From positions 73,575 through 137,574 of the forward strand of contig CACFSX010000001.1 of the NCBI GenBank assembly GCA_902569095.1: 64,000 nucleotides of DNA, in the 5' to 3' direction. The DNA is from an uncultured Alphaproteobacteria bacterium. Lineage in GTDB: Bacteria; Pseudomonadota; Alphaproteobacteria; Methylaequorales; Methylaequoraceae. The notes under the pieces are model-generated. The model was not told the origin of the DNA and searched no databases. It saw only the letters and a list, made by a program, of their open reading frames with translations. Each line of letters opens with the position of its first letter. Positions within the stretch are counted from its first letter, which is position 1. Of the stretch, positions 5,676-56,574 are shown in pieces. The translations under genes were made by a program, and so were the position numbers.

Positions 5676-6224
5676 TTACTTTTTATTTGGAATCCAAAGT
5701 ATATCACCATCTTTTTTATTCTCAAACCGTGCAGCTACAAAAAGAAAATCAGAAAGTCTATTTACATATTTTATTATGTCTAAATTCACTTTTTCTTTAT
5801 CATTTAATTCAATGATTGATCTTTCTGCTCTTCTTACGTTGGATCTTGATAAATGTAGAAATGATGAGAGTTGACTCCCTCCGGGAAGAATAAATGACTT
5901 TAATTTATCCAAGTTTTTATTCATCTGATCAATTTCTTTTTCAAGGAAGTTAATTTTCTCACTTGATATTGTCACGTATCTTTTTGAATTTTCAGGAAAA
6001 CATAAATCAGCCCCTATATCAAAAAGATGATTTTGAATCTCAAGTAATGTTTTTTTTAAATTCTTATTAGAGAAGTATACACATACTCCTAGTGATGAGT
6101 TTGCCTCATCTATGTCACCATATGCTTTTATTCTTATGTTGCTTTTGTTAACTCTTGAACCATCTCCCAAACTTGTTAAACCTTTATCCCCTCCACGAGT
6201 ATAAATTTTGTCAAGTTTTACCAA
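5676..6224 (-). CDS. ATP:cob(I)alamin adenosyltransferase, PduO/MMAB type
   Basis: 182 aa. N-terminal [13 protein letters not shown] motif of PduO-type adenosyltransferases. Confidence 0.85.
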
Positions 6225-6232
6225 TTTTTCCT

Positions 6233-6424
6233 CTATGATTTCAAGAATAAGGCAACCGTAAGAATTGTAAGTGTCACAAATTGTATAGCTACTCTGTATC
6301 TCATGAATAAGTTTATCTTATTATTTTCTTCATTGGATCTAGCTGTATGAAATAATCCTATCAAAAGTACAATAAATGTTGTAATCAAACATACTACGAT
6401 AATGAAGTTAAGAAAGAATTCCAT
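6233..6424 (-). CDS. twin-transmembrane-helix small protein (HIG1-domain like)
   Basis: 63 aa with two TM helices and an RYRVAIQ (RxRxxxQ) motif between them. The start overlaps the mcd stop. Confidence 0.6.
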   Translation of the reverse strand: MEFFLNFIIVVCLITTFIVLLIGLFHTARSNEENNKINLFMRYRVAIQFVTLTILTVALFLKS

Positions 6425-11573: not shown

Positions 11574-12326
11574 GTGCACACCTCAACATTAAACGACATC
11601 CCTAACATTAAAGTTCCGTGTAAACATGTGAATATCAGTAAAATAATTGATTTTTCAAATCATTCTAATTTAAGAAAAAAAGAGGCTGAATACTGCCCAA
11701 TTTTTAATTTTGAATCATTAAAACCAAAGCTAAAGTTCAATCACAAAAAAAAATTTTGTAGTGGAAGAAGATTCATTATAGCAAGAAAATTTCTATCGAA
11801 ATTTGGATTTCCAGCATATGGGGTACACTGTAACGTGTGGAGTAGATTTAAGAATTCAACAATTATTCATCTTGCAAAAAGATCTTATAAACTAGACAAA
11901 TTCCCAGGATTTTATGATAATTTAATTGCTGGTGGTCAACCAATAGATTTATCAATTGAGCAAAATTTTTATAAGGAAGCATTTGAAGAAGCTGGGTTAA
12001 ATCAAAAACAAGTTTCCCGCGCCAAAAAAAGTTCCACTGTACATTATCAACATAATGAAAAGACAAATTTCAATTCAGCAATTATATTTAATTATCATTT
12101 AGAAAAATGTGTGGATATGAAATTTTCAAATCAAGACGGAGAGGTAGAAAGTTTTTTTTCGATTGAACTTACCAATCTTTACAAGATTTTAGAAAAAAAT
12201 TCTTTGAAAGCAAATTGTGTAATTCCATTGATTGATTTTTTTATATTAAAAGAAAGTGATTTTATTCCAAAAAGCGTTATCGTTGAAATAAAAAAATTGT
12301 TTAATAAAAATGAAAGAAAACTTTAA
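11574..12326 (+). CDS. NUDIX-domain protein; the annotated GTG start is probably not the true N-terminus (see finding on the A9 tract)
   Basis: 250 aa. Degenerate Nudix box GGQPIDLSIEQNFYKEAFEEAGL. The same frame is open but lacks any start codon for 32 codons upstream. Confidence 0.6.
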   Translation: MHTSTLNDIPNIKVPCKHVNISKIIDFSNHSNLRKKEAEYCPIFNFESLKPKLKFNHKKKFCSGRRFIIARKFLSKFGFPAYGVHCNVWSRFKNSTIIHLAKRSYKLDKFPGFYDNLIAGGQPIDLSIEQNFYKEAFEEAGLNQKQVSRAKKSSTVHYQHNEKTNFNSAIIFNYHLEKCVDMKFSNQDGEVESFFSIELTNLYKILEKNSLKANCVIPLIDFFILKESDFIPKSVIVEIKKLFNKNERKL

Positions 12327-12963
12327 CGGACAAATTCTGCTGCCAGAAGAAAATGAAGTTAAAAATGCAATCGTATTCCTTCATGGCTATGGTGCAAACG
12401 CAGAGGATCTTATTAATATAGGTCAAGAGTGGAAACAAGAACTGCCATCTACAGCTTTTATTTCTCCAAATGCTCCTTTTAAATGTGAGTGGGGAGAAAA
12501 TGCTTATCAATGGTTTGATCTCACGTCAATTGCTCCTGAAAAAATTGGTGAAGGTTTAAAAAAAGCAGGTCCGTATCTTACCAGTTTAATAGAAGACATT
12601 AAAAGAGAATATTCTTTAGTTGATTCTCAAATTGCTTTTTTTGGATTTTCCCAAGGAGCAATGATGGGCTTGTATCATTTGTGTAAAAGAAAGCAGAGTT
12701 GTGCTGGGTTATTGGCTTACTCAGGACTTCTTTTTGAGGATAAAGAGTTTGAAAATGAAGTTTCATCTAAATTCCCAGTAAGAATTTTTCACGGCAAAGA
12801 TGATGAAGTAATACATTATGAGAATTCATTAAACTCTTATAACAAACTAAAAAAAATAGGTTTCTCTGTAGATCATCATATTCAAGAAAACCTTGGTCAT
12901 GGCATTGATAGATTTGGTCTAAAATTCGGTAATGATTTTTTAAAAAAAATTTTAAAAGTTTAA
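12310..12963 (+). CDS. alpha/beta hydrolase, phospholipase/carboxylesterase family
   Basis: 217 aa. LHGYGAN, nucleophile elbow GFSQGA, and a late HG..D and His pattern. Confidence 0.75.
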   Translation: MKENFNGQILLPEENEVKNAIVFLHGYGANAEDLINIGQEWKQELPSTAFISPNAPFKCEWGENAYQWFDLTSIAPEKIGEGLKKAGPYLTSLIEDIKREYSLVDSQIAFFGFSQGAMMGLYHLCKRKQSCAGLLAYSGLLFEDKEFENEVSSKFPVRIFHGKDDEVIHYENSLNSYNKLKKIGFSVDHHIQENLGHGIDRFGLKFGNDFLKKILKV

Positions 12964-13003
12964 ATTCTTTGTTTATTCACAATATAATAATAAAATAAGT
13001 TTT

Positions 13004-13564
13004 ATGAGTTTAGTTTCTAATAAATGCCCCGCACTTGTTCTTAATGCAGACTATCAACCATTAAGTTATTTTCCATTATCCACTTGGTCGTGGAAAAATG
13101 CACTTAAGGCCGTCTTTCTGGATAGGGTAAATGTTGTATCTGAATACAATCAGGTAGTTAGATCGCCCTCCACATCATTAAGACTTCCTAGTGTCGTATC
13201 TTTAAAAGACTATATTCCACTTCCAGAAAAAGCTGCATTTACAAGATTTAACGTTTTTTTGAGAGACAAATTTTTGTGTCAGTACTGTTCTAAGAGTTTT
13301 AAAGTTGAGGAATTAACTTTTGATCATGTTATACCCAAATCTAAAGGTGGTAAAACTACATGGGATAATGTTGTGACATCTTGCAGAGTTTGCAACACCA
13401 TGAAGGGAAATAAATCTCTAAAAAAAATTGGAGTTAAACTTAAATCTAGTCCACATACACCAAATAACTTCGAACTCAAAGAAATTGGAAGAATGTTTCC
13501 TCCAAATTTCCTTCACCAAAGCTGGAATGATTTTTTGTATTGGGATTCAGAGCTTGAACCCTAA
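13004..13564 (+). CDS. HNH endonuclease family protein
   Basis: 186 aa. CQYC...FDHVIPKSKGGKTTWDNVVTSCRVCNTMKGN (HNH/zinc-hook motif). Confidence 0.8.
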   Translation: MSLVSNKCPALVLNADYQPLSYFPLSTWSWKNALKAVFLDRVNVVSEYNQVVRSPSTSLRLPSVVSLKDYIPLPEKAAFTRFNVFLRDKFLCQYCSKSFKVEELTFDHVIPKSKGGKTTWDNVVTSCRVCNTMKGNKSLKKIGVKLKSSPHTPNNFELKEIGRMFPPNFLHQSWNDFLYWDSELEP

Positions 13565-14085
13565 ATTTTTTTTGAGAGCCTAATAGCTAACCTGGTCAGA
13601 TTTTTTGTAAAACCTTTAAAAAGATCTACAATTTGATCACTTTGATTAGATTGTTCTGCAAATGATCTATGTTCATCTTCATCTGCGCAAAATTTCTTTA
13701 TTTTTTTTAGCAATTCCTTTTCCACGCCAAGACTTTCCAAGTATTTTATTTGTGCATTATAATGACCAACAATTACTTCTTCTACTGCTTCTGTACAAGC
13801 GTGAACATACTTTTCTCCCAGCAGCGATGTTACTGCACCTAAGAAATATCCTCCGTGATGCCAAATTGGACTTAAAACCGTTGGTCTAGTTCTTTTCTTT
13901 AACATTGTCTTGTCAAAATAATCGTAATGTTCAAATTCTTCAGCAATTATTGTTTCAAGTTTTTTCTTTAACTTTTTTTCTTTGCAGAACTTTATCTGTC
14001 CCGAATAAATTCTTTGAGCCCCATACTCTCCTGCATGATTGACTCTAATAATCTCATCAATTGTTTTTTGAAGATTTGTTTTCAT
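13561..14085 (-). CDS. coq7: demethoxyubiquinone hydroxylase (Coq7 family di-iron protein)
   Basis: 174 aa. RVNHAGEYGAQRIY and repeated E..H di-iron ligand motifs (EEFEH, EDEH). Confidence 0.85.
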   Translation of the reverse strand: MKTNLQKTIDEIIRVNHAGEYGAQRIYSGQIKFCKEKKLKKKLETIIAEEFEHYDYFDKTMLKKRTRPTVLSPIWHHGGYFLGAVTSLLGEKYVHACTEAVEEVIVGHYNAQIKYLESLGVEKELLKKIKKFCADEDEHRSFAEQSNQSDQIVDLFKGFTKNLTRLAIRLSKKI

Positions 14086-14584
14086 GTTTCGTAAAGATAT
14101 AATAGCTTAACGTAATTAGTAAAGCTGAAATTATAAAGTTTAAATTTGCAAGAGACAAACCCAAGATTGAGAAAGATATTTCATCACATTTTATTAATGG
14201 TGTTGCCTCGAGGAAATTTCTCAAATCCTCTATATTGTCAATATCACTCCCAGTAGACGTGCATCCAATATCAAATTCAATTAATTTTCTTTCAACTAGA
14301 GAATGAAAACCCGAAATCATAAAAGTTGAAAAGAAACATATAAGAGCAATTAATTTTAATTGAATTTTTTTTATTTTTAACGACAACAATGATATCAATA
14401 ATAATAAAAAATATGGCCATCTTTGGTATTCACAGAGATTACAAGGAGGGTGATTAAAAAATAATTCCAAAACATATGCAGATATTAAAATCAAAGATGA
14501 AACTATGAAGACAATCACAAAATATTTTTTTTCAACAAGCCTTATGAAATTTTTTCTATCGATTTTCGTTAATGAGAAGGACAT
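14057..14584 (-). CDS. disulfide bond formation protein B family
   Basis: 175 aa with four TM segments, CNLCEYQRWPYF in the first periplasmic loop and a second Cys pair (C...C) later. Confidence 0.7.
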   Translation of the reverse strand: MSFSLTKIDRKNFIRLVEKKYFVIVFIVSSLILISAYVLELFFNHPPCNLCEYQRWPYFLLLLISLLSLKIKKIQLKLIALICFFSTFMISGFHSLVERKLIEFDIGCTSTGSDIDNIEDLRNFLEATPLIKCDEISFSILGLSLANLNFIISALLITLSYYIFTKHENKSSKNN

Positions 14585-14770
14585 AAATATCGTATTTAGT
14601 TGATTGACGTTTGAGTTAAAATAAAAAATTTATTTATGACAAAACTTTAACAAAATATATATAAAAAATAAGTTCCTATCCACCTAAAAAAGTCATACCA
14701 AATTTTAAAACAATTTTAAAGAAACATATCAAGATATAATTTCAAATTTTCAATTAAAAATTATTTAAAT

Positions 14771-15367
14771 TTACGACATAACATCTGTTAACTTTAAAAA
14801 AATTAAAATAATTAATATAACTAAAAGTATCATAGTAATCTTTTTCATATTATCTTTTATTAAATCAAGAGCTTTATTCCCGTACTTTGCAATAAAATAA
14901 GCAACAAGAATAAATCTTGAAAATCTGGAAACAAAAGATAAAAACATAAATGAAAAAAAATTAATCCCCAGTACTCCAGAGGCAAAGCAAGTTATCTTAA
15001 ATGGAAACGGAGAAAAGCCACCGATAAGAATTATTAGGTATCCAATTTCCTCGAATTTTTCATTGAAGTCTTCAACAGAGGAAAAAATTTTAGGTGATTT
15101 GACAAATAAGAAACTTGAAATTTCTTGATAAAAGACACTACCTAATAAATAAGTAATACCTCCTCCAACTACTGAAAAAGTAGAAGTAATTAAAACTAAT
15201 TTATAAAACTTTTTTTGTGCTAAAACATAAGGTATAAAAAAAGGGTCGGTGGGAAGGGGGAAAAAAATTGATTCGATAAATGCTATGAAATATAGAAATC
15301 CGTTGCTTTTAGTATTTTTAAAAAATTTGGTAAATTTTTCATAATAAAATGAAATTATTTGTTTCAC
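14771..15367 (-). CDS. YqaA/DedA-superfamily membrane protein
   Basis: 198 aa polytopic protein with an ESIFFPLPTDPFFIPYVL motif. Confidence 0.6.
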   Translation of the reverse strand: MKQIISFYYEKFTKFFKNTKSNGFLYFIAFIESIFFPLPTDPFFIPYVLAQKKFYKLVLITSTFSVVGGGITYLLGSVFYQEISSFLFVKSPKIFSSVEDFNEKFEEIGYLIILIGGFSPFPFKITCFASGVLGINFFSFMFLSFVSRFSRFILVAYFIAKYGNKALDLIKDNMKKITMILLVILIILIFLKLTDVMS

Positions 15368-15499
15368 GATCTTAATATATCATCTTTTTTAATGGGTTTA
15401 AAAACCATATTATCATAGATAAATATTCATTAATATTGTACCATTTCAAAATATAAATATTCAAAAAGCAAAGCTTTATAAAATAACCTAAATTCACAA

Positions 15500-15586
15500 G
15501 CCCCTATGGCGGAATTGGTAGACGCGACGGATTCAAAATCCGTTGAACTTCGGTTCATGTCCGTTCGAGTCGGACTAGGGGTACCA
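15500..15586 (+). tRNA. tRNA-Leu (anticodon CAA)
   Basis: Hand-folded. Acceptor gccccta/taggggt (G1-U72), anticodon arm acgga-ttCAAaa-tccgt, long variable arm tgaac-ttcg-gttca, T arm gtccg-ttcgagt-cggac, discriminator A, encoded CCA. Confidence 0.9.
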
Positions 15587-15590
15587 TTAT

Positions 15591-16745
15591 TTAAAAGTTT
15601 CTGAGCCTTTTCGGATTTAGCATCAAAATACTTGACGAAATCATGCAAGAAATGGCCAAAAAAATTGAGCTCTTGTAGTTATTTTCTAAATCAATGAGCA
15701 TACCGGAAACATATGGTCCAATTATTTGACCAACACTAAACGCAGTGGTCATAATAGCGACGGAAATATTAACATTCCCAATGAATCTTTTTTTCCCTTC
15801 AACTAAAATTAATGCAACGGATCCAGGAACGCCTAAACCGTATAGTAAACAAGCAAGAAAAAAGTAACTAACATTGTTAAAAAGTAAAAATGCAACACCA
15901 AGAGTAACTGTCGAACAAGAAAAAAATAATAACAAATCTGTGCTAATTTTTGTAGATAACCAATTCCAAAGTAAAACCGAAGGAATTGCAAATAATCCTA
16001 CTATTATCCATGACATATACTGATAAAAAGAAATTTCAAATGAATTTATAGCTATTGCACTTATAAACGTTCCGAAAATTATATAACCAATGCCAAAGAA
16101 AAAATATCCCAATGAAATTACAATAAAATTTATTTGCAGTTTACTTTTAACTGAATTTCTATCTTCGTTTTTATAATCTAATTTCTGAGGGATAAAAATA
16201 ATAATTCCGGTACATAGTAATGCTCCAATCAAACCTACAAAAATCCATTGGTGAGTCCATAGAAGATCTACGGTTGAAATTATCCATACAACTGCAGTTC
16301 CAATAACTATGCCCAAACCAATCCCAGAAAAGTGATAAAGTTGTAAGGTTTTGTTTAAAGATTCTTTAAAGAAATTAAACATCAATGATATTGTGTAAAC
16401 AAAACTTAGCGCACTTGAAATCCCACATAAAAATCTTAACGTACAAAATATCCTTAAATCTGTGGTACATCCCATTAAAAAAATTGTAACCACAGAAATA
16501 ATTGAAGAAAAAATAATCATTTTTCTGAAATTATTATATTTCCAAATAATTGGGATTATTGATCCAATGAGATAACCAAAATAGTTAAATGAGGATATCA
16601 TCCCCATATTTGTTGAATTTAGATATAACTCATTTTGCATATTGGGCAATATAGGTGTGTATATAAATCTTCCAAAACCGATAGCTATTAAGGTCGAAAA
16701 AATACCTGCCATAATAACATTAAAATTTACCTTTGAAAATTTCAT
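15591..16745 (-). CDS. MFS transporter (YbfB/YjiJ-like)
   Basis: 384 aa with ~12 predicted TM segments. The stop codon lies only 5 nt from the tRNA-Leu CCA end. Confidence 0.6.
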   Translation of the reverse strand: MKFSKVNFNVIMAGIFSTLIAIGFGRFIYTPILPNMQNELYLNSTNMGMISSFNYFGYLIGSIIPIIWKYNNFRKMIIFSSIISVVTIFLMGCTTDLRIFCTLRFLCGISSALSFVYTISLMFNFFKESLNKTLQLYHFSGIGLGIVIGTAVVWIISTVDLLWTHQWIFVGLIGALLCTGIIIFIPQKLDYKNEDRNSVKSKLQINFIVISLGYFFFGIGYIIFGTFISAIAINSFEISFYQYMSWIIVGLFAIPSVLLWNWLSTKISTDLLLFFSCSTVTLGVAFLLFNNVSYFFLACLLYGLGVPGSVALILVEGKKRFIGNVNISVAIMTTAFSVGQIIGPYVSGMLIDLENNYKSSIFLAISCMISSSILMLNPKRLRNF

Positions 16746-16768
16746 CTGGGTATTAAATTAATATATAT

Positions 16769-17557
16769 ATGAGAATAAATAAATATTGTTGGTTTTTTAG
16801 TTTTTCTATAAAATTATTTTCAGTATTTACTATAATATATCTTGCCTTTTCATTTCCTATTAAAGCTCATCACAAAATAGATAATCCAACAATAAAATTT
16901 TCTGAATCCCCAGACATAAGAAATTTTTTTTTTGAATGGAGGGGGCATATAAATCTTGATAGAAAAAAAGAAAATCATGAAACGTATCATCAAGTATTAG
17001 AATTCGTTAAAGGATGGAACAAACGCTATGAGACAGACTTTGAATTACATATTGCTGATTTAAAAAATAGCTCATTAGCAATTCCAAAAGTAAAATTTCA
17101 AAACAAATATAATTTTATTAATAACAAAAATTTTCTATTCTCAACTTTTTTTTCATTTAATTTAGCCACTGAGAAAAATAGTTCAGATCAAATAGAATAT
17201 AAATTTCTATTTCAAAATAAATTTAAGTATTTTGTTTTTAATAATGGTTTTGGTTTTTATAAAAATATCAATGGGAAAGATTCAAAAAACACGGTTCTAA
17301 AATATTTTCCATTAATTTACTTTAAAAAACCTATTATATCCGATGTTCATTTGGCAATCGCAGGAAGTAGTGATTTCGGGAAAATTTCAAAGTTTAGTAC
17401 ATACACTAATCAAAAACATCAATACGGACTTGGGATTAAAAAAACTTTTCAAAAAAATACTCCACGTGAAATTGATTTAACAATTGCATATTTAAAGGGT
17501 CTGAATTCAGAGTCATTTGATCAATCACTTATTTGGTATGTAAATAAATCATTCTAA
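16769..17557 (+). CDS. hypothetical exported protein, possibly an outer-membrane beta-barrel
   Basis: 262 aa. N-terminal signal-like segment, alternating aromatic/polar pattern, C-terminal ...WYVNKSF ending in Phe. I recognise no family. Confidence 0.4.
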   Translation: MRINKYCWFFSFSIKLFSVFTIIYLAFSFPIKAHHKIDNPTIKFSESPDIRNFFFEWRGHINLDRKKENHETYHQVLEFVKGWNKRYETDFELHIADLKNSSLAIPKVKFQNKYNFINNKNFLFSTFFSFNLATEKNSSDQIEYKFLFQNKFKYFVFNNGFGFYKNINGKDSKNTVLKYFPLIYFKKPIISDVHLAIAGSSDFGKISKFSTYTNQKHQYGLGIKKTFQKNTPREIDLTIAYLKGLNSESFDQSLIWYVNKSF

Positions 17558-17963
17558 TTATTATTCAATTATTTATAACAGAGTTTGTGTCCATCCAGGT
17601 AGAATATATAGACTGCATCTCAATCAATTTCGCACTAGCGGTGTTGGAGATTGATTAAAATAACATAAACAATTTAAAGTTTTTTTTTACTTTCCGAGAA
17701 TTCATCCTAGAAAAATGTCAAATTCTCTAATATAAAAAAACTAATACATGAAACATAAACTTTATAAACCCTTAAAAATTATTTTTGGTGTATTCGTAGT
17801 TGATAGTTGGTTCGAAAGTTTTGAATAAATTAAAGTAGGGACAAACTGAGGGTATTTGAACTACTGCTATGCAGTACCACAAAACAATTTAAATTTAAAA
17901 TTTTTTATCTCATAATATCTTTAAACTTCTTGTAAAATATTTTTTCAATGTAATACTAATATT

Positions 17964-18470
17964 ATGAATCTGATCTTTGTAATTGTTATTCTGTTGTTTT
18001 CTTTTAATTTAAATGCATCATGCAAGTTTAAAAATTCAACTTCAAATGATGAAGTTAAATATACTATTCAGAAATCTATAAATGTTGATGACATTGAAGG
18101 TCATGTTATTAGAATTTTCAAAACCGAAACCAATCATAAAAAATCAAAAAAAAATTGTGAAGGTCTTAGGATAGTCAAAACAGATTTTTATGGTATTAGT
18201 GATTACATTAACAAAAACGGAAGGGTAACTGGCTATTCAATTGGAATTTACGACGATGGTAGCAAAATTTTCTCTCGAGTTGATGGTGTTGCTCAAACCC
18301 CAGAAGACGTTAGTAAAAATGGTCTTGTTAATACTTCAATTACAATTACGGGAGGAACTGGGATCTACAAAGGAGTAATTGGCTATGGTAAAGGACAAGT
18401 AGAATTTAATCCCGAAACAGGCTACTCCGCTGGGAATACCGAAACATTTTACACAATCTCAGTAAAATAA
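17964..18470 (+). CDS. hypothetical secreted protein
   Basis: 168 aa with a signal peptide (MNLIFVIVILLFSFNLNAS). The C-terminal ITGGTGIYKGV motif resembles dirigent/AOC-barrel-like folds, but the assignment is weak. Confidence 0.4.
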   Translation: MNLIFVIVILLFSFNLNASCKFKNSTSNDEVKYTIQKSINVDDIEGHVIRIFKTETNHKKSKKNCEGLRIVKTDFYGISDYINKNGRVTGYSIGIYDDGSKIFSRVDGVAQTPEDVSKNGLVNTSITITGGTGIYKGVIGYGKGQVEFNPETGYSAGNTETFYTISVK

Positions 18471-18477
18471 AACGGAA

Positions 18478-18549
18478 TGGCTGAGGGGATTTGAACTCCT
18501 TACATCCAGTTCTACAAACTAGCGCTCTAACAAACTGAGCTTCAGTTAG
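18478..18549 (-). pseudogene. degenerate tRNA-like element (GUA anticodon, broken acceptor stem)
   Basis: The minus strand shows a D arm gctc/gagc, anticodon arm ctagt-ttGTAga-actgg and T arm aggag-ttcaaat-cccct. However, the acceptor pairs at only 4 of 7 positions, there is no G18G19 and no CCA, and the short variable loop does not fit a bacterial tRNA-Tyr. Confidence 0.4.
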
Positions 18550-18676
18550 TATTTTGAATAAATGCTCTACATTCATAGGGATATTCTTGGATATTTTGAA
18601 AAAAAAATATTGATACAAGACATTGATACAAACAATGAAAATCAGTGTAATAAAGGGTTATAGACCAAACGCTACT

Positions 18677-18733
18677 GATTCAAAATCCGTTGAACTTCGG
18701 TTCATGTCCGTTCGAGTCGGACTAGGAGTACCA
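18677..18733 (+). repeat. direct repeat of tRNA-Leu 3' 57 nt (att-like core, copy 2)
   Basis: 56/57 identical to 15530-15586 (G>A at 18727). The 5' half of the tRNA is absent. Confidence 0.9.
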
Positions 18734-18756
18734 TTTTTTTAAAAACAAAGATAATT

Positions 18757-19686
18757 TTAATTTATGAATGATTGTAGATTTTTTTTGGCATATAACATTT
18801 TAGGATAATAATGTTGTTCAAGATCCTCTAACAGCCAATCAACATTAATTGAATCCATTTTTGTAAATAATAAGTTAGGAATTCCATGTAACTTTAAGTC
18901 AGATTTATGAGGAATGTATTTGGGTAAACCGCCACTTGGATCTAAAACAAACATTTCTAAGCCATATTTTCTCATATGAACTCTTATAGTATTTAAAGAA
19001 TCGTTTAATCTAGCCAAACAATGAGGAGCATATTCAACAATCCAATATCGAACAATATCGTTTTTAAGAAGAGATTGGGATCCACGAAGAATTTGTCCCT
19101 CAAAACCTTCAACATCAATTTTCACAACTTTTATTTTTTTATCATTAATTTCTTTATCTAATGTGGACGTTTTTAAACTCTTCCAATCTAAATTTTCATT
19201 ATCAGGTTTCTTAACACCATAAGATGTTCCTGAATCATGCGAAGAACAGTGAAAAAAAACTTCCTCACCACTGTTCTCTCCCAGAATAATTTTTTTTAGT
19301 TTTATATTTTTAAAATTGTTAAGTTTTATATTTGCTCTCAATTCTTCATAGCTCTCTTTTCCAGGTTCAAAAGCAATGACTTTACCCTCCGATCCTACTA
19401 GTGAACTCATTAATAATGAATGCATTCCTATATTAGCACCAATGTCAATACATGTGTCTTTTGGACTTATAATACGTGTTAAGAAAAGACCAATATCATT
19501 TTCATAAAAATGTCCGTTCTTTATCCACGAATAAATAGTTTTATGATTATTTTTTTCTGGATAAAAATTATATTTAAACTCTTTTTGATGCAATTTTTTC
19601 ATCAAAATATTTCTTTCGTTTAAATAATAGCTATTGTAACTAAATCTGAGAAGTTTTTGTTCTTTAAACATAACTAAAATTAGCAA
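18757..19686 (-). CDS. FkbM-family SAM-dependent methyltransferase
   Basis: 309 aa. CIDIGANIGMHSL SAM-binding motif, FEP, and KIDVEGFE, all typical of the FkbM domain. The real start may be the internal MKKLHQ. Confidence 0.7.
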   Translation of the reverse strand: MLILVMFKEQKLLRFSYNSYYLNERNILMKKLHQKEFKYNFYPEKNNHKTIYSWIKNGHFYENDIGLFLTRIISPKDTCIDIGANIGMHSLLMSSLVGSEGKVIAFEPGKESYEELRANIKLNNFKNIKLKKIILGENSGEEVFFHCSSHDSGTSYGVKKPDNENLDWKSLKTSTLDKEINDKKIKVVKIDVEGFEGQILRGSQSLLKNDIVRYWIVEYAPHCLARLNDSLNTIRVHMRKYGLEMFVLDPSGGLPKYIPHKSDLKLHGIPNLLFTKMDSINVDWLLEDLEQHYYPKMLYAKKNLQSFIN

Positions 19687-19854
19687 TATTTATACCAATG
19701 GAATTAAAATAAATAGTTCAATTACATTGAAGAATTTTTAAGGAAATATAAGAGATTTGGCAATTAGTTTACCAATTATAAAGTGATAATTCTAAAAAGT
19801 TTGATAGTAAAGTTTATTTAAATTTAAATCAATGACTTACAACCAAACGCAACT

Positions 19855-19911
19855 GATTCAAAATCCGTTGAACTTCGGTTCATGTCCGTTCGAGTCGGAC
19901 TAGGGGTACCA
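19855..19911 (+). repeat. direct repeat of tRNA-Leu 3' 57 nt (att-like core, copy 3)
   Basis: 57/57 identical to 15530-15586. Confidence 0.92.
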
Positions 19912-19972
19912 TTTTTTTAAAAAACAGAGATAATTTGATAAAGTTATAATTATTTAATAGGTTTAACTTATA

Positions 19973-20953
19973 ATGACTAAAAATATTGCTGTCATAGGTG
20001 CTGGTTTAGCAGGGACAACCATTGCATTGAAGATGAAAGGAAAATTTAAAGTAAAGGTTTTTGAAAAATCAAATGATGTAGGCGGAAGAATGTCAACCAG
20101 AAAAGAGATTCCTTTTTTTTTTGATCACGGAGCACAATTTTTTAAAATCAATACAGTTGATTTTAAAAATTTTCTTTTAGAATTATTTTCTCAGAAAACA
20201 ATTAAACCATGGAGCTTTAGACTTGCGTATTTTGAAGGGCAATATTTAAGTAAAATAAAATTGATAAAAGATTCAGATAAATTCTTTGTTGGCGCACCGA
20301 ATATGGACTCTATTATCAAACATCTATCAAAAAATTGTAATGTGATTTTAAATACAAAAATTGAAACTATAACAAAAAAAAATGGAAAATGGAATCTTTA
20401 TGACCATAATAAAAAATCTTATGGTTTTTATGATTGGGTTATATTGAGCCTTCCAGCTCATCAGTCACTTGAGTTAATTACAAACAAAATTTCTTTTTAT
20501 TCTTTGATTGAAAAGATTAAAATGAAGGGATGTTTTACTTTGATGGTAGGAATGAATAAATCTTTGAATTTAAACTATGACGCAGCATTAATAAAAAATG
20601 AAGATATTGCATGGTTGGCTTTAAATAATTCTAAACCAAGCAGAACGAATAAAAATTGTTTGATAATTAACTCTTCGCATGAATATGCCTCGAATAATAT
20701 GAATACCTCTAAAGACAAAGTTTTAAAACACATATTGAGTACTTCCTGTAATTTGCTAAATTATGATTTATTTAATTCGACCACGATCAAAATTCATCAA
20801 TGGAAATATGCTGAGGCTGAATTTCCCCCAAAAGAAAATTTTTTTATTGATCATAAAGAGAAAATTGCAGTATGTGGTGATTGGTTTATTAACAGTAGAG
20901 TTGAGGGTGCATTTACAAGTGCAAATGAGCTTTCTAAAGAACTTCTTAAATAA
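19973..20953 (+). CDS. NAD(P)/FAD-dependent oxidoreductase (renalase-like, COG3380 type)
   Basis: 326 aa. IAVIGAGLAGTT dinucleotide fold, then VFEKSNDVGGRMSTR...FDHGAQFF. Confidence 0.75.
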   Translation: MTKNIAVIGAGLAGTTIALKMKGKFKVKVFEKSNDVGGRMSTRKEIPFFFDHGAQFFKINTVDFKNFLLELFSQKTIKPWSFRLAYFEGQYLSKIKLIKDSDKFFVGAPNMDSIIKHLSKNCNVILNTKIETITKKNGKWNLYDHNKKSYGFYDWVILSLPAHQSLELITNKISFYSLIEKIKMKGCFTLMVGMNKSLNLNYDAALIKNEDIAWLALNNSKPSRTNKNCLIINSSHEYASNNMNTSKDKVLKHILSTSCNLLNYDLFNSTTIKIHQWKYAEAEFPPKENFFIDHKEKIAVCGDWFINSRVEGAFTSANELSKELLK

Positions 20954-21311
20954 TTTTTTAATTTAAATTTTTTGAAATGTAGTTTATTCGCAAGCTTTTT
21001 TTAAAGTAAAAGTGTGTCTTTTTTGAATCTAAACAACTCAATAAAACCTGTTTGAATATCCAACAAACCACTTGATTTATATGATGAAAAGTTTAGCATC
21101 TAAGAATTGACACTATTGAAGATTTATAAAATTGACTAAAATTATCTATACTTAATATAATCTCAGTTATAATTTATGAATGAATTTGATTTGATAAAAA
21201 AAGTATTTTGGTCTCTACTAATCTTCATTTGTTTCCTTTTTATTTTAGTGAATATTTTTTTTGTTTTATAAAAGTCCTTAATTATTTCAAAGATAATAAT
21301 ATATTTTCGAT

Positions 21312-23807
21312 TTATTCGTTTCTAAGTAAAAAATATGTACTTAAATTAAAATACTTACGGTTTGATGCAAACAGGGTTAATGCTAATACTACCAAAGATA
21401 GAGAAGATATTAAAAAAGGAATCTTCAAAGAAAAATACCAATCAATATTAAAAAAATTTGTTATTAAAATATAGGAAAGTAAGAAAGAAAAAACTAACGA
21501 AAAGCAAATAATGGGCACAAAAATAATTAAAGACTCAAATAATATTAATTTAATTATACCAATGCGCTCATAACCAAGAATTCTGAAAACTAGATTTTGA
21601 TAAACTTTTAAATTCCCCATTACACTCATTGCATTTGAAACGACTACAAGTCCAATAGCAACAACAAAACTCGACATCAAAATACTAACAAAAAATATTT
21701 TATCTAAAAAATTTTTGGTTTTATTTATGTAAGCAGATACTTTTATGTAAGTAATATTTGGTAATTTATTTAACAATTTGTTAAAACTAATTTGTTCTTG
21801 ATCTTTAAACTTTACGGTAGACATGAATTCATGAGGAATTTCAGATGCAAATTTAGGATTAAATAAAATTGCAAAATTAATGTTCAAATCCTTATAATTA
21901 ACTTTTCTAAAATTTGTAATAACTCCAGAAACTGAATTACCATAAATGTTGAATCTAACTGAATCCCCAAGCTTTAATTTTAAGTCTTTTGCAACTTTGT
22001 GATCTAAAGAAATTTTTAACTCTTTTTTTTCGTCAGAGTTCCACCATTCACCTTCTTCAATTTGATTATTAGAAGGAGAATCTTTTGACCATGATATTCT
22101 TCTTTCACCATTAACAAACCAAAAACTTTCATTATTTCTATTTACTACTTTTTTGGGAGGAATATTATTTATAGCTTCAATTCTTGCAGATATTATTGGA
22201 ACCACTTTTTTCTGTGCTTGATTGTCAATCTTATTAATTTGTTTCAAAAATAAATTTTTCTCATCTTTTTGGATTCCTAAAAAAAAATAATCAGGAGCAT
22301 CTCTAGGTATGCCGCTATTAAGTTCTTTATTGATATTTGAGGATAGAAAACCTAAGAATAATAAAGTGGTTATACCAACTCCCATTGTCATTATTATCAT
22401 TGAGTTAAGATTTTGATAATTGTTTAGATTTTTAATTCCTATATTAAAAGAAATATTTTGCCTATTTTTTATTTTATTTAAAATTAAAATATAAAATTTG
22501 GATAGATAATAGTAAAAACAACTTATTAAAAAAAAGAAAAAGAAAAAAAAGGCTATTTGAAATGATTTTACGTTTATTATACAAAATATCGAAATAAAGA
22601 TTAGTAGAAATATAACCATTTCTGATATTGATTTTCTATTGTAATTAAAATTTAAATTTGAATTACTATTTCTAAATAAATTTCTAACTTTTATTTGATT
22701 GATAGTATCCAATGCGGGTTTACCAAAAATCATAAAAATCACCACACTAAAAAATTGAACAATCAAATATTCGTATATTTTAAATTCAACGTTAAGTTTA
22801 ATTTTGAGAAAGTTTGAAAGAATATTATCAAACAAAGAAATTAAAAATAACCCCAAAATGTATGAAATGAAAGAACAAAAAACCAGAATTGTTAGTATTT
22901 GAAGATAGTATAAAGTCTTTACATTTTTTGAATTTAACCCCAATGATTTGTAGATTGCAATCTTTAATTGGTTGTTACTAAAAAATGAAAATAATGAGTT
23001 CTTTAAACCAATACCTGAGATCAATATAGCTGATGCAGAAACAATAGTTAAAAAAAAAATAAAATTTTCAATGGTCATTTTTAAGTTCTGACTAATATCT
23101 TTTGGCAATTTTATAGTTAGATCTTTATTTTTGACAATATAATCAGGAACTTCTTGTTTCTGATCTTTATTGATCAATTTGTATCTAAATTTTACAAAAC
23201 TTCCAAGATTATTAATTTTTAAATTTTCAAAACCAGATTTACTTATTAAAGCTTGATCTCCAAAAAGGAAAAAACTCCCTATCTCTGGTAGACTTTCAAT
23301 TACACCAAGTACTTCGTAACCAGAGTTTTGAATTCTAACTTTATCACCCAGCTTAAGATCAAGATTATTTTTTGTTGTTTTATCAATTAAAATCCCATCT
23401 GATCGATTCTTTAAAATTTGAAGTGAATTTTCAGGTTCAACCTTCACCTCACCAATAAGCGGATAGAAATTATCAACCACTTTAATCCTTGTAGTTTTAC
23501 TTTCTTTATTATTAGTTTTTACAATAGTTGTAAATTCCACAACCTCTGTGATTAAAAAATTTTTTTTTAGTTTTTCTAGAAATTCTGAATTCAAAACCTT
23601 GTTTTTTGTTGATAATTCCAAATCACCACCAAGAAGAACTTTTGAATTATTTTTTATCTCATTTTCAATACTATTTTTAAAAATTGTCACTGTAGAAAAA
23701 ATTAACAAACTTACAAAAATAGTGAAGAAAACTTTGGAAATTTCGGATTTATTTTTATTCAACTCTTTGACGAAGAACAGGAAATATTTTTTATAAGTCA
23801 TATTCAA
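21312..23807 (-). CDS. ybbP: ABC transporter permease, FtsX-domain, YbbP-like
   Basis: 831 aa with two FtsX-type permease modules separated by large periplasmic regions. Coupled to a ybbA-like ATPase and divergent from tesA, as in E. coli. Confidence 0.7.
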   Translation of the reverse strand: MNMTYKKYFLFFVKELNKNKSEISKVFFTIFVSLLIFSTVTIFKNSIENEIKNNSKVLLGGDLELSTKNKVLNSEFLEKLKKNFLITEVVEFTTIVKTNNKESKTTRIKVVDNFYPLIGEVKVEPENSLQILKNRSDGILIDKTTKNNLDLKLGDKVRIQNSGYEVLGVIESLPEIGSFFLFGDQALISKSGFENLKINNLGSFVKFRYKLINKDQKQEVPDYIVKNKDLTIKLPKDISQNLKMTIENFIFFLTIVSASAILISGIGLKNSLFSFFSNNQLKIAIYKSLGLNSKNVKTLYYLQILTILVFCSFISYILGLFLISLFDNILSNFLKIKLNVEFKIYEYLIVQFFSVVIFMIFGKPALDTINQIKVRNLFRNSNSNLNFNYNRKSISEMVIFLLIFISIFCIINVKSFQIAFFFFFFFLISCFYYYLSKFYILILNKIKNRQNISFNIGIKNLNNYQNLNSMIIMTMGVGITTLLFLGFLSSNINKELNSGIPRDAPDYFFLGIQKDEKNLFLKQINKIDNQAQKKVVPIISARIEAINNIPPKKVVNRNNESFWFVNGERRISWSKDSPSNNQIEEGEWWNSDEKKELKISLDHKVAKDLKLKLGDSVRFNIYGNSVSGVITNFRKVNYKDLNINFAILFNPKFASEIPHEFMSTVKFKDQEQISFNKLLNKLPNITYIKVSAYINKTKNFLDKIFFVSILMSSFVVAIGLVVVSNAMSVMGNLKVYQNLVFRILGYERIGIIKLILFESLIIFVPIICFSLVFSFLLSYILITNFFNIDWYFSLKIPFLISSLSLVVLALTLFASNRKYFNLSTYFLLRNE

Positions 23808-24472
23808 AATTTTATTTGACCATCAACTAATTTCATTACCTTTTCACACTTTCTGGCTAGATTCATATTATGAGTTACAATAATTAAACAAATCTCCCTT
23901 TTTTTCGAATATTCAAAAAGTAAATTAGATATCAGTTCCGTATTCTTTCTGTCTAAATTTCCTGTCGGCTCATCAGCTAAAACAATCTCTGGATTAAATG
24001 AAATTGCTCTTGCAATTGCTACTCTTTGTTGTTCACCTCCAGATAATTCTGAGGGAAGATTATTTCTTCGATGAATCAAACCAAAATCCTCAAGAATTGA
24101 CATAGCCTTTTCCTTTTCATTCTTAATTTCATTAATTTGCATAGGAAACATTACATTCTCTAGGGCTGTATAATTTGGAATTAAAAAAAATTGTTGGAAT
24201 ATCAAACCAATTTTTTTTTTTCTGATTTCAGTTCTTTTTTTCTCACCTATTTTAGATAAATCTTGATTGTTAAAAATTATTGAACCAGTTGTTGGATTTT
24301 CTAAGCCAGACATAAGCATCAAAAGACTAGTTTTTCCTGATCCACTTTCACCAATAATAGCTACTCTTTCTTTTTTTTTAATTTCAAAATTTATATTTTT
24401 TAAAATTTTGATATTATTTCCATTTAATAAGTAATTAAGATTTATGTTCTTTAGTTTATATAGAATTTTCAT
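23804..24472 (-). CDS. ybbA: ABC transporter ATP-binding protein, YbbA-like
   Basis: 222 aa. GESGSGKTS, LSGGEQQRVAIARA, ADEPTGNLD. Confidence 0.75.
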   Translation of the reverse strand: MKILYKLKNINLNYLLNGNNIKILKNINFEIKKKERVAIIGESGSGKTSLLMLMSGLENPTTGSIIFNNQDLSKIGEKKRTEIRKKKIGLIFQQFFLIPNYTALENVMFPMQINEIKNEKEKAMSILEDFGLIHRRNNLPSELSGGEQQRVAIARAISFNPEIVLADEPTGNLDRKNTELISNLLFEYSKKREICLIIVTHNMNLARKCEKVMKLVDGQIKF

Positions 24473-25085
24473 AATAACTTTTCTTTTCTACATGATTATA
24501 AGTATAAACTTTATATCAACGAAAGCTTATTGTAACCTAAAAGTTGCATTATTCGGAGATAGTTTAATGTCTGGATTTGGCTTGGATCAGGATTTTCACT
24601 TGTCTACTGTTTTGGAGAAGAAACTACAAAAACAAGGATTCGAAGTTAAAATAATAAACGCTAGTGTCTCTGGAGATACAACATCTGGTGGGCTTAATAG
24701 ACTAAATTGGCTACTTGATAATAGAGAAATTGATATCGTTATTTTATGTCTAGGAGCAAATGATATGCTGAGAGGAATTAAACCAAGTTTAATAAAACAA
24801 AATTTAAATAAGATTCTAGAGCTTTTAAGAAAAAGAAAAATTAAAATTCTCCTTGCTGGTATGCTTTCCCAAGAGACCTATGGTAAAAAATATAAAAATA
24901 ATTTTGATGAAATTTATCCTGAACTTGCAAGTGAACATAAAATTGCTTTTATTCCCTTTTTATTAGAGGGTGTTGCGCTTAATCCAGAGTATAATTTAGA
25001 CGATGGAAAACATCCTAACCCCAAAGGGGTTGAATTAATAAGTAAAAATTTAGAAAAGGAATTAATTAAACTTATAAATAAATAA
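24444..25085 (+). CDS. tesA: SGNH/GDSL arylesterase-thioesterase, TesA-like
   Basis: 213 aa. GDSLMSGFG block I, GANDMLRG block III, DGKHPNPKG block V. The longest ORF overlaps the ybbA start by 29 nt, so the true start is probably the internal MIISINF (24492). Confidence 0.75.
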   Translation: MFFSLYRIFIITFLFYMIISINFISTKAYCNLKVALFGDSLMSGFGLDQDFHLSTVLEKKLQKQGFEVKIINASVSGDTTSGGLNRLNWLLDNREIDIVILCLGANDMLRGIKPSLIKQNLNKILELLRKRKIKILLAGMLSQETYGKKYKNNFDEIYPELASEHKIAFIPFLLEGVALNPEYNLDDGKHPNPKGVELISKNLEKELIKLINK

Positions 25086-25186
25086 TTATTATTACTTATT
25101 ATATTGCAACTCTTTACAATTCACCAAAAGGTTATAAGTTTATACTCGTACATACACTTTTTTTGTAAAATGTCTGGAGCGTAAAA

Positions 25187-26014
25187 TTGGAAATCAAAGA
25201 ATTTAAATTGAATGACGGTACTTATTTTAGATACAAAAAAATTGGTAAAGGTAAACCAATTCTTCTATTACATACTTTTAGAAATAGATTAGAGTACTCT
25301 GACAAGCTTGGAAAATTACTTAAAAAAAGGAATACTGTATACTCAATTGATCTTCCTGGTTTTGGTGAATCACCAATTAATTCTCAAACAATTTATGATT
25401 TAAATTTTTTTACAGATTCTATAGTTGAATTTATCAAAAATTTAAAAATTAATAATCTTACAATTGCTGGAGAATCTATTGGTGCAGTATTATCTGCAAG
25501 CGTTTCTATAAAACTTCCAAAACAAGTAAAAAAAATTTTAATGTTTAATCCATATGATTACGATTCTTATTTTGGTGAAGGAATCCAGAGAGGAAATTTT
25601 TTTGCAAAATTTATTTTATTTCATATTAGCTTACCTATTGTTGGGCCAATATTTTCAAGCCTAGAAAATAAGTTTATACTCAGAAATGTAATGGGTGGGG
25701 GCTTCAACAATCCATGCAGTCTCACGAATGAATACTTAAATTTACTTTGTACCTCTCTTAAAAAAAAGGGGTATGTGTACCATTTTAGGAATGTTCTTCA
25801 AAAATTTAAGAAAAATAGCGGAATTAGAGAAATTTACAAAAAAGTCATAGTTCCAGTTAAACTCATATACGGAGTCAATGATTGGGCTTATAAATCTGAA
25901 AGACTACAAACCCAAAAGCTTTTAAGACTTGATAAATATCATTTAATTCATAATTGTAAGCACTTTTCATTTCTTGAAAACACTGAAGATGTTTTTAATA
26001 TAATTTGTTCCTGA
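25187..26014 (+). CDS. alpha/beta hydrolase
   Basis: 275 aa. TTG start preceded by GGAG. LLHTF..., nucleophile elbow GESIGA, late NCKHF His. Confidence 0.65.
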   Translation: MEIKEFKLNDGTYFRYKKIGKGKPILLLHTFRNRLEYSDKLGKLLKKRNTVYSIDLPGFGESPINSQTIYDLNFFTDSIVEFIKNLKINNLTIAGESIGAVLSASVSIKLPKQVKKILMFNPYDYDSYFGEGIQRGNFFAKFILFHISLPIVGPIFSSLENKFILRNVMGGGFNNPCSLTNEYLNLLCTSLKKKGYVYHFRNVLQKFKKNSGIREIYKKVIVPVKLIYGVNDWAYKSERLQTQKLLRLDKYHLIHNCKHFSFLENTEDVFNIICS

Positions 26015-56173: not shown

Positions 56174-56571
56174 TCTTCCTCATTAGATAAAGAAGTAACG
56201 ACATTTAAGTTTCTCCAAAAATCCTCACTTTTCAAATTAATATCATTCAACCTCATCAGTAAACTTCTCACAATTGCCCTAACTACTGGATCGGCCTCTT
56301 TCAACTTTTGTTTTAAATTCTTTTCATTTATTGGATACAAAATACAGTTTGAGTCCGCTTCAGCAGTAACCGATCTGGATTCGTCTAATGATGGACCTCT
56401 CTCTCCAAAGATTTCTCCTTCGCCAATCTTTCCTAGTAAAAGCCCACCAGGACTATATATGTTTACTCGCCCAGAATGAACATAGTACGCAAAATGAGCT
56501 GCATCACCTTTCGTGTATATTTTTTTTCCTTTACTAAACTTTAGTTGATTTATACCTATTTTTTTAATCAA
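56170..56571 (-). CDS. standalone cyclic-nucleotide-binding (CAP effector) domain protein
   Basis: 133 aa. GEGEIFGE ... RSVTAEA phosphate-binding-cassette-like region. No output domain. Confidence 0.65.
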   Translation of the reverse strand: MIKKIGINQLKFSKGKKIYTKGDAAHFAYYVHSGRVNIYSPGGLLLGKIGEGEIFGERGPSLDESRSVTAEADSNCILYPINEKNLKQKLKEADPVVRAIVRSLLMRLNDINLKSEDFWRNLNVVTSLSNEED

Positions 56572-56574
56572 AAC

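Follow-up and report, generated by a model that had tools for sequence, protein, structure and literature searches.

What assembles a series of gene cassettes behind a tRNA gene where no recombinase is found, and do such cassettes still move? SAR11-type bacteria are among the most abundant cells of the ocean, and combine large flexible gene pools with almost no recognizable mobile elements; the route by which they gain genes is debated. The question is posed by a 64-kb stretch of DNA (the window, meaning the whole stretch analyzed, abbreviated W) from a SAR11-type (Pelagibacterales-like) alphaproteobacterial lineage. The window is AT-rich (~29% GC) and contains an intact tRNA-Leu(CAA) gene followed by two partial copies of that gene, each of which closes a cassette of cargo genes. 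We consider it probable that this locus is an additive genomic island that arose by serial site-specific integration followed by decay, and that the leftover cassettes are still being exchanged. The island would span 15500-19911 and decay out to ~21295. Below, L-numbers denote collected genome loci or metagenome contigs and F-numbers denote cassette families.

ARAGORN called two tRNAs in the window, Leu(CAA) at 15500-15586 (+) and Arg(CCT), the latter having no partial copies there. The 57-mer 15530-15586 is repeated on the same strand at 18677-18733 (one mismatch, G>A at 18727) and at 19855-19911 (no mismatches). A search with this 57-mer allowing up to 3 mismatches gave exactly 3 sites in the window and 0 in 100 dinucleotide-preserving shuffles, which together with the ARAGORN call confirmed the earlier note on this DNA, made from the letters alone, as to the tRNA and its two 57-nt copies. 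The tRNA-derived repeat is longer than 57 nt, however. It comprises 65 nt (tRNA positions 23-87) and begins 8 nt further left, where two diagnostic substitutions just 5' of the anticodon loop change ACGCGACGG to ACGCAACTG or ACGCTACTG in the partial copies. These substitutions are present in nearly all of 96 partial copies and in no intact tRNA. The two window copies are alike further upstream too, and also over ~24 nt downstream.

15500..15586, + strand: intact tRNA-Leu(CAA), chromosomal attachment site (attB/attL); called by ARAGORN, 87/87 identical in six relatives
15522..15586, + strand: 65-nt tRNA segment reused as att core (anticodon stem to CCA), including the fully identical block 15530-15586
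18669..18733, + strand: partial tRNA-Leu copy 1, 65 nt, with the 57-nt block 18677-18733 (1 mismatch)
19847..19911, + strand: partial tRNA-Leu copy 2, 65 nt, with the 57-nt block 19855-19911 identical to the tRNA

Related loci were fetched by use of the gene to the left of the tRNA as anchor:

14771..15367, - strand: left-flank VTT/YqaA-DedA-like membrane protein gene (Pfam PF09335 VTT_dom, E 1.2e-10)

A genome scan with the single anchor protein gave no match and a profile of the VTT-domain anchor was needed; scanned against one genome per species it returned 80 loci (L005-L084). The relatives of the window are single-cell genomes and metagenome-assembled genomes (MAGs) labelled uncultured Alphaproteobacteria, Pelagibacteraceae or Rickettsiales. 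In six of them (L009, L011, L014, L016, L018 and L022) a tRNA-Leu(CAA) identical at 87/87 positions is accompanied by 1-6 same-strand partial copies spaced ~1-4 kb, the anchor proteins of these genomes being only 39-51% identical. The tRNA adjoins the anchor gene in W, L009, L011, L014, L018 and L022. A metagenome scan with a 27-mer specific to the partial copies matched 51 contigs, many of which end at the repeat. Altogether 59 closed cassettes in 42 families were obtained with a median length of 1.6 kb and sizes clustered at 1.0-1.35 kb, which is one gene. Their cargo is typical flexible-genome content: methyltransferases, C-5 DNA methylases, a MunI-type endonuclease, sugar epimerases, acyl-, carbamoyl- and sulfo-transferases, transporters, alkaline phosphatase and a Pycsar-effector-like protein. 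Hence, where the earlier note had asked for alternative cargo between identical repeats and had set against it the same genes in all close relatives, the relatives gave the 42 families. Its proposal of a tandem att-site array framing integrase-less cassettes is supported both by this varying cargo and by an attP found beside a tyrosine integrase (below).

Four metagenome contigs (L001-L004) encode the exact VTT protein of the window. All are at most 1.4 kb in length and end at 15443, 15517, 15587 and 15660, which indicates either population heterogeneity or repeat-induced assembly breaks at the tRNA.

Cassettes exchanged after lineage divergence

The window contains two recognizable cassettes, and the gene content between the repeats is cargo only, as had been stated at the outset.

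15587..18733, no strand: cassette 1, family F4, 3,147 nt, composite (MFS_4 plus 262-aa unit, nested 168-aa unit, arm and partial copy)
15591..16745, - strand: MFS_4 (YbfB-type) transporter, 384 aa (PF06779, E 3e-56)
16769..17557, + strand: 262-aa protein with hydrophobic N-terminus; no Pfam match, 97% identical in L014
18734..19911, no strand: cassette 2, family F0, 1,178 nt (FkbM methyltransferase, T1 arm and partial copy)
18757..19671, - strand: FkbM-family methyltransferase, 304 aa from the ATG (PF05050, E 1.9e-16)

In L014, a close relative with core proteins 90-95% identical, the two cassettes are in reversed order. The array of W reads tRNA-F4-F0 and that of L014 reads tRNA-F0-F4, and the breakpoints between the two lie exactly at the core ends. 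A third array, L093, reads F0-F4-F0-X, and in L085 F0 has other neighbors; F0 thus occupies four contexts, namely position 2 in W, position 1 in L014, L085, and L093, where it is present twice. The F4 cassette has equal boundaries in L093 (3,146 nt) and is present in L014 without the end copy. Families F1, F2, F3, F5 and F6 are each found at differing ranks in different arrays. Moreover, five of the six cassettes shared by genome pairs are 10-18 points higher in nucleotide identity than the core genes at the flanks:

W and L014: cassettes 96-97%, flank 86% (singly, F4 97% versus 86% and F0 95.7% versus 86.2%)
L009 and L022: cassettes 88-94%, flank 76%
L016 and L018: cassettes 85%, flank 71%

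Given the reordering and the excess cassette identity, a fixed old duplication is ruled out, and the cassettes were shown to have been exchanged between lineages after divergence. Integrase-less cassettes have thus changed position and host after loss of the integrase. The choice originally offered between decayed remnants and cargo modules moved in trans was partly right on both sides: integrase-less cassettes have been relocated, and decayed integrase-bearing cassettes are found elsewhere. Copy decay increases with array rank (rho 0.43, p 0.015, n 31, in a sample partly selected by an exact 27-mer), and greater decay at a distance from the tRNA fits insertion at the tRNA end.

One 5.4-kb metagenome contig (L093, 1-5453) carries the FkbM cassette F0 on both sides of F4. 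This arrangement suggests either that insertion was duplicative or that a circle of two cassettes was excised and entered again. Three contigs having a copy at both ends (L086, L114 and L118) were considered as circular cassettes. The sequence that follows each copy differs and therefore these are arrays, not circles.

Core, arms and a candidate parent element

The likeness between unrelated cassettes stops exactly at the CCA on the right, whereas on the left it runs into a non-coding arm. This conserved arm of 60-190 nt with short tandem repeats precedes the partial copies and is common to cassettes across genomes. Four families account for 69 of the 76 copies that have sufficient upstream sequence (33, 26, 8 and 2 members), and at ~50-70 nt from the core each family has short direct repeats peculiar to it:

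T1: 33 members, repeat GTGTGATAG or GTTTGATAG
T2: 26 members, repeat CATTGATAC, twice, conserved
T3: 8 members, repeat GTGTGTTA
T4: 2 members, repeat GTGACAY

The T1 arm also carries AATCAATGACTTA, which fits the IHF consensus WATCAANNNNTTR, and a block further from the core, CATTCATAGGGATATT…GAAAAAAAA, is common to T1 and T2. As the orientation of the arm relative to the core is constant whichever strand the cargo gene uses, the arm is part of the site rather than of the gene. The anticodon-loop region of the copies can be read as CAACTGA-TTCAAAA-TCCGTTG, an imperfect inverted repeat around seven bases. In arrangement, core plus arms would thus correspond to a tyrosine-integrase core accompanied by arm-type sites. 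A start motif, AAACTCAATGTGAGTAAGGG, recurs at the beginning of cassettes. Promoter and terminator scans gave signals below background. In the window the arms are as follows.

18570..18607, + strand: distal arm block CATTCATAGGGATATTCTTGGATATTTTGAAAAAAAAA, common to T1, T2 and the attP of the 8.3-kb element described below
18609..18631, + strand: T2 tandem repeats, ATTGATACAA twice; candidate arm-type integrase sites
19799..19839, + strand: T1 arm, partly decayed, with one intact GTTTGATAG (19799-19807), a degenerate second one, and AATCAATGACTTA at 19827-19839

Both T1 arm repeats are intact in the L014 version of the F0 cassette. In L088 (42-189) two partial copies lie 90 nt apart with only the proximal T1 arm between them, an 'empty' cassette.

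Local phmmer and hmmsearch screens with the recombinases of lambda, P4, P-SSP7, HTVC019P, Mu Gin and phiC31 gave nothing in ~1.8 Mb of loci, and none of the array-bearing genome loci had a recombinase up to 10 kb from the tRNA. A leave-one-out test showed the local screen to be of moderate sensitivity, a real integrase being missed until L044-type seeds were added. When the tRNA and both arm modules were compared by BLAST with 50,697 phage records, the only similarity was of the generic tRNA-Leu kind. Exact scans of IMG/VR, made with arm repeats and with pieces of the core 19-50 nt long, gave zero matches, the positive control recovering HTVC019P. A long multi-gene stretch of L101, L112, L132 and L119 that was suspected to be a helper element encodes envelope proteins and was discarded.

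The seeds that changed the screen came from a distant alphaproteobacterial MAG. In L044 (7684-9219) a 412-aa tyrosine integrase lies between a 41-nt duplicate of the 5' half and an intact tRNA-Leu(CAA), apparently a minimal att-int-att unit of opposite geometry. Close relatives of this integrase number >7,000 and are 63-83% identical; Parvularcula, Hyphococcus and Bryobacteraceae are among their labels. As a probe into the window lineage the integrase gave no route, the >7,000 matches being from high-GC bacteria. L044-type seeds exposed an open reading frame (ORF) in L108 that starts 84 nt after a W-type partial copy, behind the start motif, and matches the N-terminal region of L044-type integrases. 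Its relatives in the protein databases are all short.

A candidate parent element was found in L168, a 27-kb long-read contig in which a unit of 8,273 nt is repeated in tandem ~3.3 times. The order within the unit is P arm (with two GTTTGATAC), tRNA-Leu 3' copy of 65 nt, start motif, GTTTGATA (the P' side) and integrase gene. L169, a long-read contig from another sample, contains one unit of 95-96.5% identity to L168. As the ends of the 8.3-kb element are joined via the arm-core junction, this junction is best read as attP on a circular or concatemeric form. The attP foreseen by the earlier note was therefore obtained insofar as an arm and a tRNA-Leu 3' segment lie beside a tyrosine integrase on this element; no phage in the two viral collections supplied one. 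The integrase frameshifts of L168 vary from copy to copy and in this resemble sequencing errors. The stitched 393-aa integrase is divergent, but over its full length it aligned to a protein that NCBI names as a tyrosine recombinase (E 3e-34), the catalytic Arg, Lys, Arg/His and Tyr motifs being in register, and it matched the PHROG_1 integrase (3e-12). Its N-terminal region aligns to that of L044-type integrases, and arm binding is a candidate function of this region. Pfam recognizes only the N-terminal SAM-like domain, which explains the earlier negative recombinase screens. A PDB sequence search with the integrase gave no match. The element also encodes a small serine recombinase (1e-37) and a clamp-loader-like AAA+ ATPase, and no capsid genes were found on it.

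Some cassettes elsewhere are visibly decayed integrase-bearing elements. The second cassette of L009 retains part of the integrase N-terminus, and pieces of two backbone ORFs flank its methyltransferase; other cassettes retain the lipoprotein-like or acidic-protein genes of the element beside the arm. The truncated integrases of L170-172 are followed by sugar-modification cargo.

These observations suggest the following scheme. An incoming element would bring an attP in which a P arm bearing 9-10-nt tandem repeats is joined to a 65-nt tRNA copy and a short P' side. The tyrosine integrase encoded beside this attP would then recombine it with the chromosomal tRNA gene, the crossover probably falling in the anticodon stem-loop. 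At integration the tRNA would be rebuilt and a partial copy left at the far end of the insert, and tRNA-Leu would stay functional because incoming elements supply the replacement 3' part. New insertions would enter at the tRNA and older units would shift outward. Integrase and backbone genes would be deleted later, such that the cargo gene(s), P arm and partial copy remain. Such integrase-less units could be excised and re-inserted by the integrase of an incoming element or could travel together with one. Because the arms are conserved, supply of integrase in trans or co-mobilization is the most likely route of movement. We infer the crossover position, the binding of the arms, mobilization in trans and the service of the 8.3-kb element family to this exact lineage.

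Several findings weigh against this account. In the window no recombinase was found upon Pfam screening of all ORFs of 240-480 aa (the absence first remarked upon between the repeats thus extends to the whole window), nor were there element or integrase remnants. The L168/L169 core has a variable arm changed on both stem sides, and hence is that of a sister tRNA-Leu(CAA) variant and not that of the window. Apparently intact integrase copies are found only on error-rich long-read contigs, the integrases beside a W-type core in accurate short-read assemblies being truncated (L170-172) or cut by the contig end (L108). The cassettes of the window lack the P' motif found beside the integrase and the last arm lacks one of its two repeats; the window's cassettes may therefore be unable to integrate on their own. 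Neither an excised circle of an integrase-less cassette nor an empty site was found: the allele predicted by the earlier note, in which the tRNA is joined directly to the right flank, was absent from the collected loci. The correlation of decay with rank is modest and comes from the partly selected sample, and single-nucleotide polymorphism linkage gave too few informative variants to place the crossover point.

The main rival to a site-specific route is homologous recombination. The repeats would have arisen once by integration, and RecA-type exchange between copies of 57-65 nt (up to ~190 nt if the arms match), after DNA uptake or transduction and with no dedicated integrase, would now drive cassette turnover. 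Repeats of 57-190 nt suffice for low-frequency homologous exchange. Besides remnants of the L108/L170 type no recombinase was seen in the window or the ~1.8 Mb of loci, the window's cassettes are without the canonical P' side with one arm half decayed, and one copy (L093_3293) has a hybrid pattern at the diagnostic positions. We also sought special constraint on the core, and within cassette families the core was no better conserved than the cassette body. However, it is difficult to account for four arm families whose tandem repeats are conserved and whose orientation to the core is fixed unless a protein reads the arms. The diagnostic substitutions never enter the tRNA and the similarity always ends at CCA, and an integrase-bearing element having exactly this arm-core layout exists. 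We therefore regard exchange by homologous recombination only as unlikely, albeit the rival to be taken most seriously.

Serial integration with continued exchange must also be set against a reading in which the cassettes are inert fossils, the decayed remnants of two old insertions, vertically inherited and immobile. Decay is plain enough: one arm repeat is lost from the last arm of the window, the site of a third unit (below) is wholly lost, distal copies decay, and the integrase remnants in other cassettes make decay the normal fate. Immobility fits poorly with the swap of both cassettes in L014, the doubling of F0 in L093, the W/L014 cassette identity ~10 points above the flank and the metagenome assemblies of the window's own population, which are interrupted at the tRNA. 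This reading is already contradicted for the lineage as a whole, and we give it very little credence. Finally, that the copies are kept for their hairpins (as attC-like sites or tRNA-like RNA) and not as duplex att cores is scarcely credible, since although the variable-arm and T-arm hairpins are retained (87.8% of cells pair), there is no covariation beyond ancestry (3 pairs change both sides versus 2.7 in shuffled data; score 0.131 versus 0.122, 48/500), the anticodon stem is broken in 30 of the 41 distinct copies, decaying copies lose pairs, Rfam matches no family but tRNA even at permissive thresholds, and with no compensatory change a structure-selected, attC-like or RNA role is unsupported.

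Comparison with known systems

Additive flexible islands at tRNA genes have been described in Alteromonas (PMC3698932) and at a tRNA-Lys gene in Ca. Methylopumilus (PMC10872708), and for SAR11 a 2025 pangenome study noted four gMED islands (GI-20/30/50/58) in which parts of tRNAs are repeated; it reported a single integrase and the absence of canonical mobile elements (PMC11796062). Like these islands the window locus has a fixed position beside a tRNA, a variable number of cassettes and direct repeats of the tRNA 3' end. It also shares their envelope, defence and nutrient cargo and the usual absence of mobile-element genes in streamlined genomes. The position at the tRNA, the variable cassettes and the 3'-end repeats that define additive islands are all observed here. 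The differences are the tRNA, which is Leu(CAA), and the length of the repeat, 65 nt versus 20 nt in Methylopumilus. Additive tRNA 3'-repeat islands are already known as a class, and what is added is the cis-anatomy, the quantified movement and the link to a satellite-like parent. In the published islands the repeats are reported in a sentence or figure, whereas here the unit, arms, permutation and parent candidate have been worked out. The locus supplies the cis-sequences (65-nt core, four arm families and cassette-start motif) together with a candidate integrase-bearing parent element, and these connect the SAR11 islands with partial tRNA repeats to satellite-like elements of marine virus fractions. 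The failure of Pfam-based screens to detect the element integrase may partly explain reports of islands without mobile elements. The mechanism of cassette exchange is now directly testable.

The satellite-like elements in question are VEIMEs (virion-encapsidated integrative mobile elements), marine phage satellites of 5-17 kb that are packaged as concatemers with 8-17 copies per virion (Eppley et al. 2022, PMC9618062). Some VEIMEs carry both tyrosine and serine recombinases, and they are reported from Pelagibacter and other Alphaproteobacteria (PMC9618062). L168/L169 resemble them in the 8.3-kb size, head-to-tail concatemer, two recombinase types, replication-type ATPase and lack of capsid genes, and their AT-rich composition suits hosts of the Pelagibacter/Alphaproteobacteria type. 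The differences are that L168 has ~3.3 copies and that the window itself holds only integrase-less derivatives. Core and arm searches did not recover the element from IMG/VR.

The tycheposons of Prochlorococcus (Hackl et al., 10.1101/2020.12.28.424599) also integrate at tRNA genes, have partial tRNA repeats and lie side by side with no more than a partial tRNA between them, newer elements pushing older ones into the island; they leave remnants with fragmented integrases and carry nutrient and defence cargo. The text of that preprint contains 0 occurrences of tRNA-Leu (10.1101/2020.12.28.424599). Integration at a tRNA gene that leaves flanking partial copies is common to both systems. In the present case, however, the host is alphaproteobacterial and the units are mostly one-gene and integrase-less, in contrast to elements of 2-10 kb with hallmark genes. 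The window cassettes carry cargo only and no hallmark genes of a mobile life cycle.

Integrons provide another parallel in that cassettes are mostly of a single gene, each ends in a recombination site and the recombinase is encoded outside the cassette; insertion would likewise be at a privileged end, with the older cassettes distal. Unlike integrons there is no intI beside the array, and the sites are tRNA-derived, sequence-conserved, duplex-type att sites with arms rather than attC hairpins. Array genes are found on either strand and presumably the cassettes carry their own promoters. Cis-mobilizable elements (CIMEs) that accrete in tandem at tRNA genes in Streptococcus reportedly were mobilized experimentally. 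Like those, the units here are att-flanked, arranged in tandem and without integrase or excisionase, and would be movable when a related autonomous element integrates beside them; CIMEs differ in deriving from conjugative elements of tens of kb in Firmicutes, and mobilization in the present case is only inferred. A more ambitious reading is that the integrase-less, mostly single-gene cassettes (P arm plus tRNA-Leu 3' copy) form a working integron-like exchange system with at least four parallel arm specificities, carried between diverged SAR11-type lineages by the integrases, and possibly a packaging route, of rare satellite-like elements that use this site. We put this forward tentatively, thinking it possible but short of probable. 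If true, cassette exchange would be a main route of flexible-gene renewal in these mobile-element-poor genomes.

The satellite phage P4 targets the tRNA-Leu gene leuX. Its annotated attP also has a core flanked by tandem arm repeats with the integrase gene adjacent, but the P4 core is 20 bp at the tRNA 3' end versus 57-65 nt from the anticodon stem here, and a local integrase profile gave no link between the P4 integrase and the integrase found here. The general likeness is to attP sites of heterobivalent tyrosine integrases (lambda/P4 type): tandem repeats are present in all four arm families, and arm-type repeats in both arms of the element's attP. A prophage remnant of an HTVC019P-type pelagiphage was also considered. 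It was rejected because no pelagiphage matched the tRNA or arms and phmmer with the HTVC019P integrase gave no match; published pelagiphage targets are tRNA-Leu(TAG/TAA), tRNA-Cys and tRNA-Arg.

Surroundings of the array and related loci

Within cassette 1 lies a nested unit bounded by fragments of a second tRNA type:

17846..17883, - strand: 3' fragment of a second, tRNA-His-like tRNA (His by eye), left edge of the nested unit; direct repeat with 18481-18518
17964..18470, + strand: putative secreted protein, 168 aa, no Pfam match
18481..18545, - strand: degenerate tRNA-like fragment of the second tRNA type, right edge of the nested unit (Rfam RF00005, 38.8 bits versus a gathering score of 29)

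The degenerate fragment is kept in L014, L093 and L022, and the 168-aa protein stands alone in L011 and L007 with 85-92% amino-acid identity. L007 (17731-19316) has three second-tRNA fragments at distances of 0.6-0.9 kb, two of which enclose the 168-aa homologue. Given this series and the window fragments around the 168-aa gene, the second fragments, tRNA-His(GTG)-like by eye, represent an independent tRNA-fragment cassette array, one unit of which became nested in a tRNA-Leu cassette.

To the right of the second copy are a further unit and the flank:

19912..21295, no strand: decayed third unit, with 25 nt like the F0 start, an FAD amine-oxidoreductase at 19973-20953 (+) and a 330-nt spacer
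21296..25086, no strand: conserved right flank, a block of FtsX permease, ABC ATPase and GDSL esterase, with homologous blocks in relatives

The right boundary that had been set at 19911 was too tight, as the oxidoreductase is itself a bounded cassette (F2) in L009, L022 and L117 (76-77% nucleotide identity). The 330-nt spacer after it showed no similarity to the arms or core when compared with them. The window therefore contains two recognizable units and one, the oxidoreductase, that has lost its site. The FtsX/ABC/GDSL block is 74% identical in nucleotide sequence to a block that in L096 and L124 follows a partial copy immediately and has an extra degenerate copy beyond it, and by protein similarity L101, L112 and L132 have a matching right-flank layout. 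Non-coding gaps of 286-406 nt do lie inside the array region, but comparable or longer ones are found at 5925-6423, 25086-25540 and 56174-56574, and the array thus does not hold the longest gaps of the window as was first thought.

The left side of the hotspot is variable too. The DsbB and VTT-domain proteins (window 14057-15367) are only 46-49% identical to those of L014, whereas genes further left are 90-95% identical, and in the closest VTT clade (76-80% identity; L005, L141 and L149 compared) a five-gene methyltransferase/aminotransferase block is inserted between DsbB and the VTT gene. The closest species representative, L005 (AG-349-G20), has core proteins 93-98% identical, yet no tRNA-Leu beside the VTT gene; its tRNA and array must lie elsewhere in the genome or be missing from the single-cell assembly.

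Three further loci deserve mention. A 4.3-kb cassette of L018 (reverse complement 11796-16110) encodes an alkaline phosphatase, PlsC-type and GNAT-type (OlsB-like) acyltransferases and a Pycsar-effector-like membrane protein. The first three genes look like a phosphate-stress and lipid-remodelling module, for which the phosphate islands of HIMB59 provide a comparison (PMC10734472). In L129 (9322-9408) a tRNA-Leu homologue (90% identical) was called by ARAGORN as tRNA-Phe with the unusual anticodon AAA; an array nevertheless starts from it, with a partial copy at a distance of 4 kb. Lastly, L029 (8563-8728, labelled Algimonas) and L039 (7813-7975, Hellea) each have a single 29-33-nt 3' copy ~50 nt past tRNA-Leu(CAA), which may be a minimal att footprint at this tRNA in other marine alphaproteobacteria.

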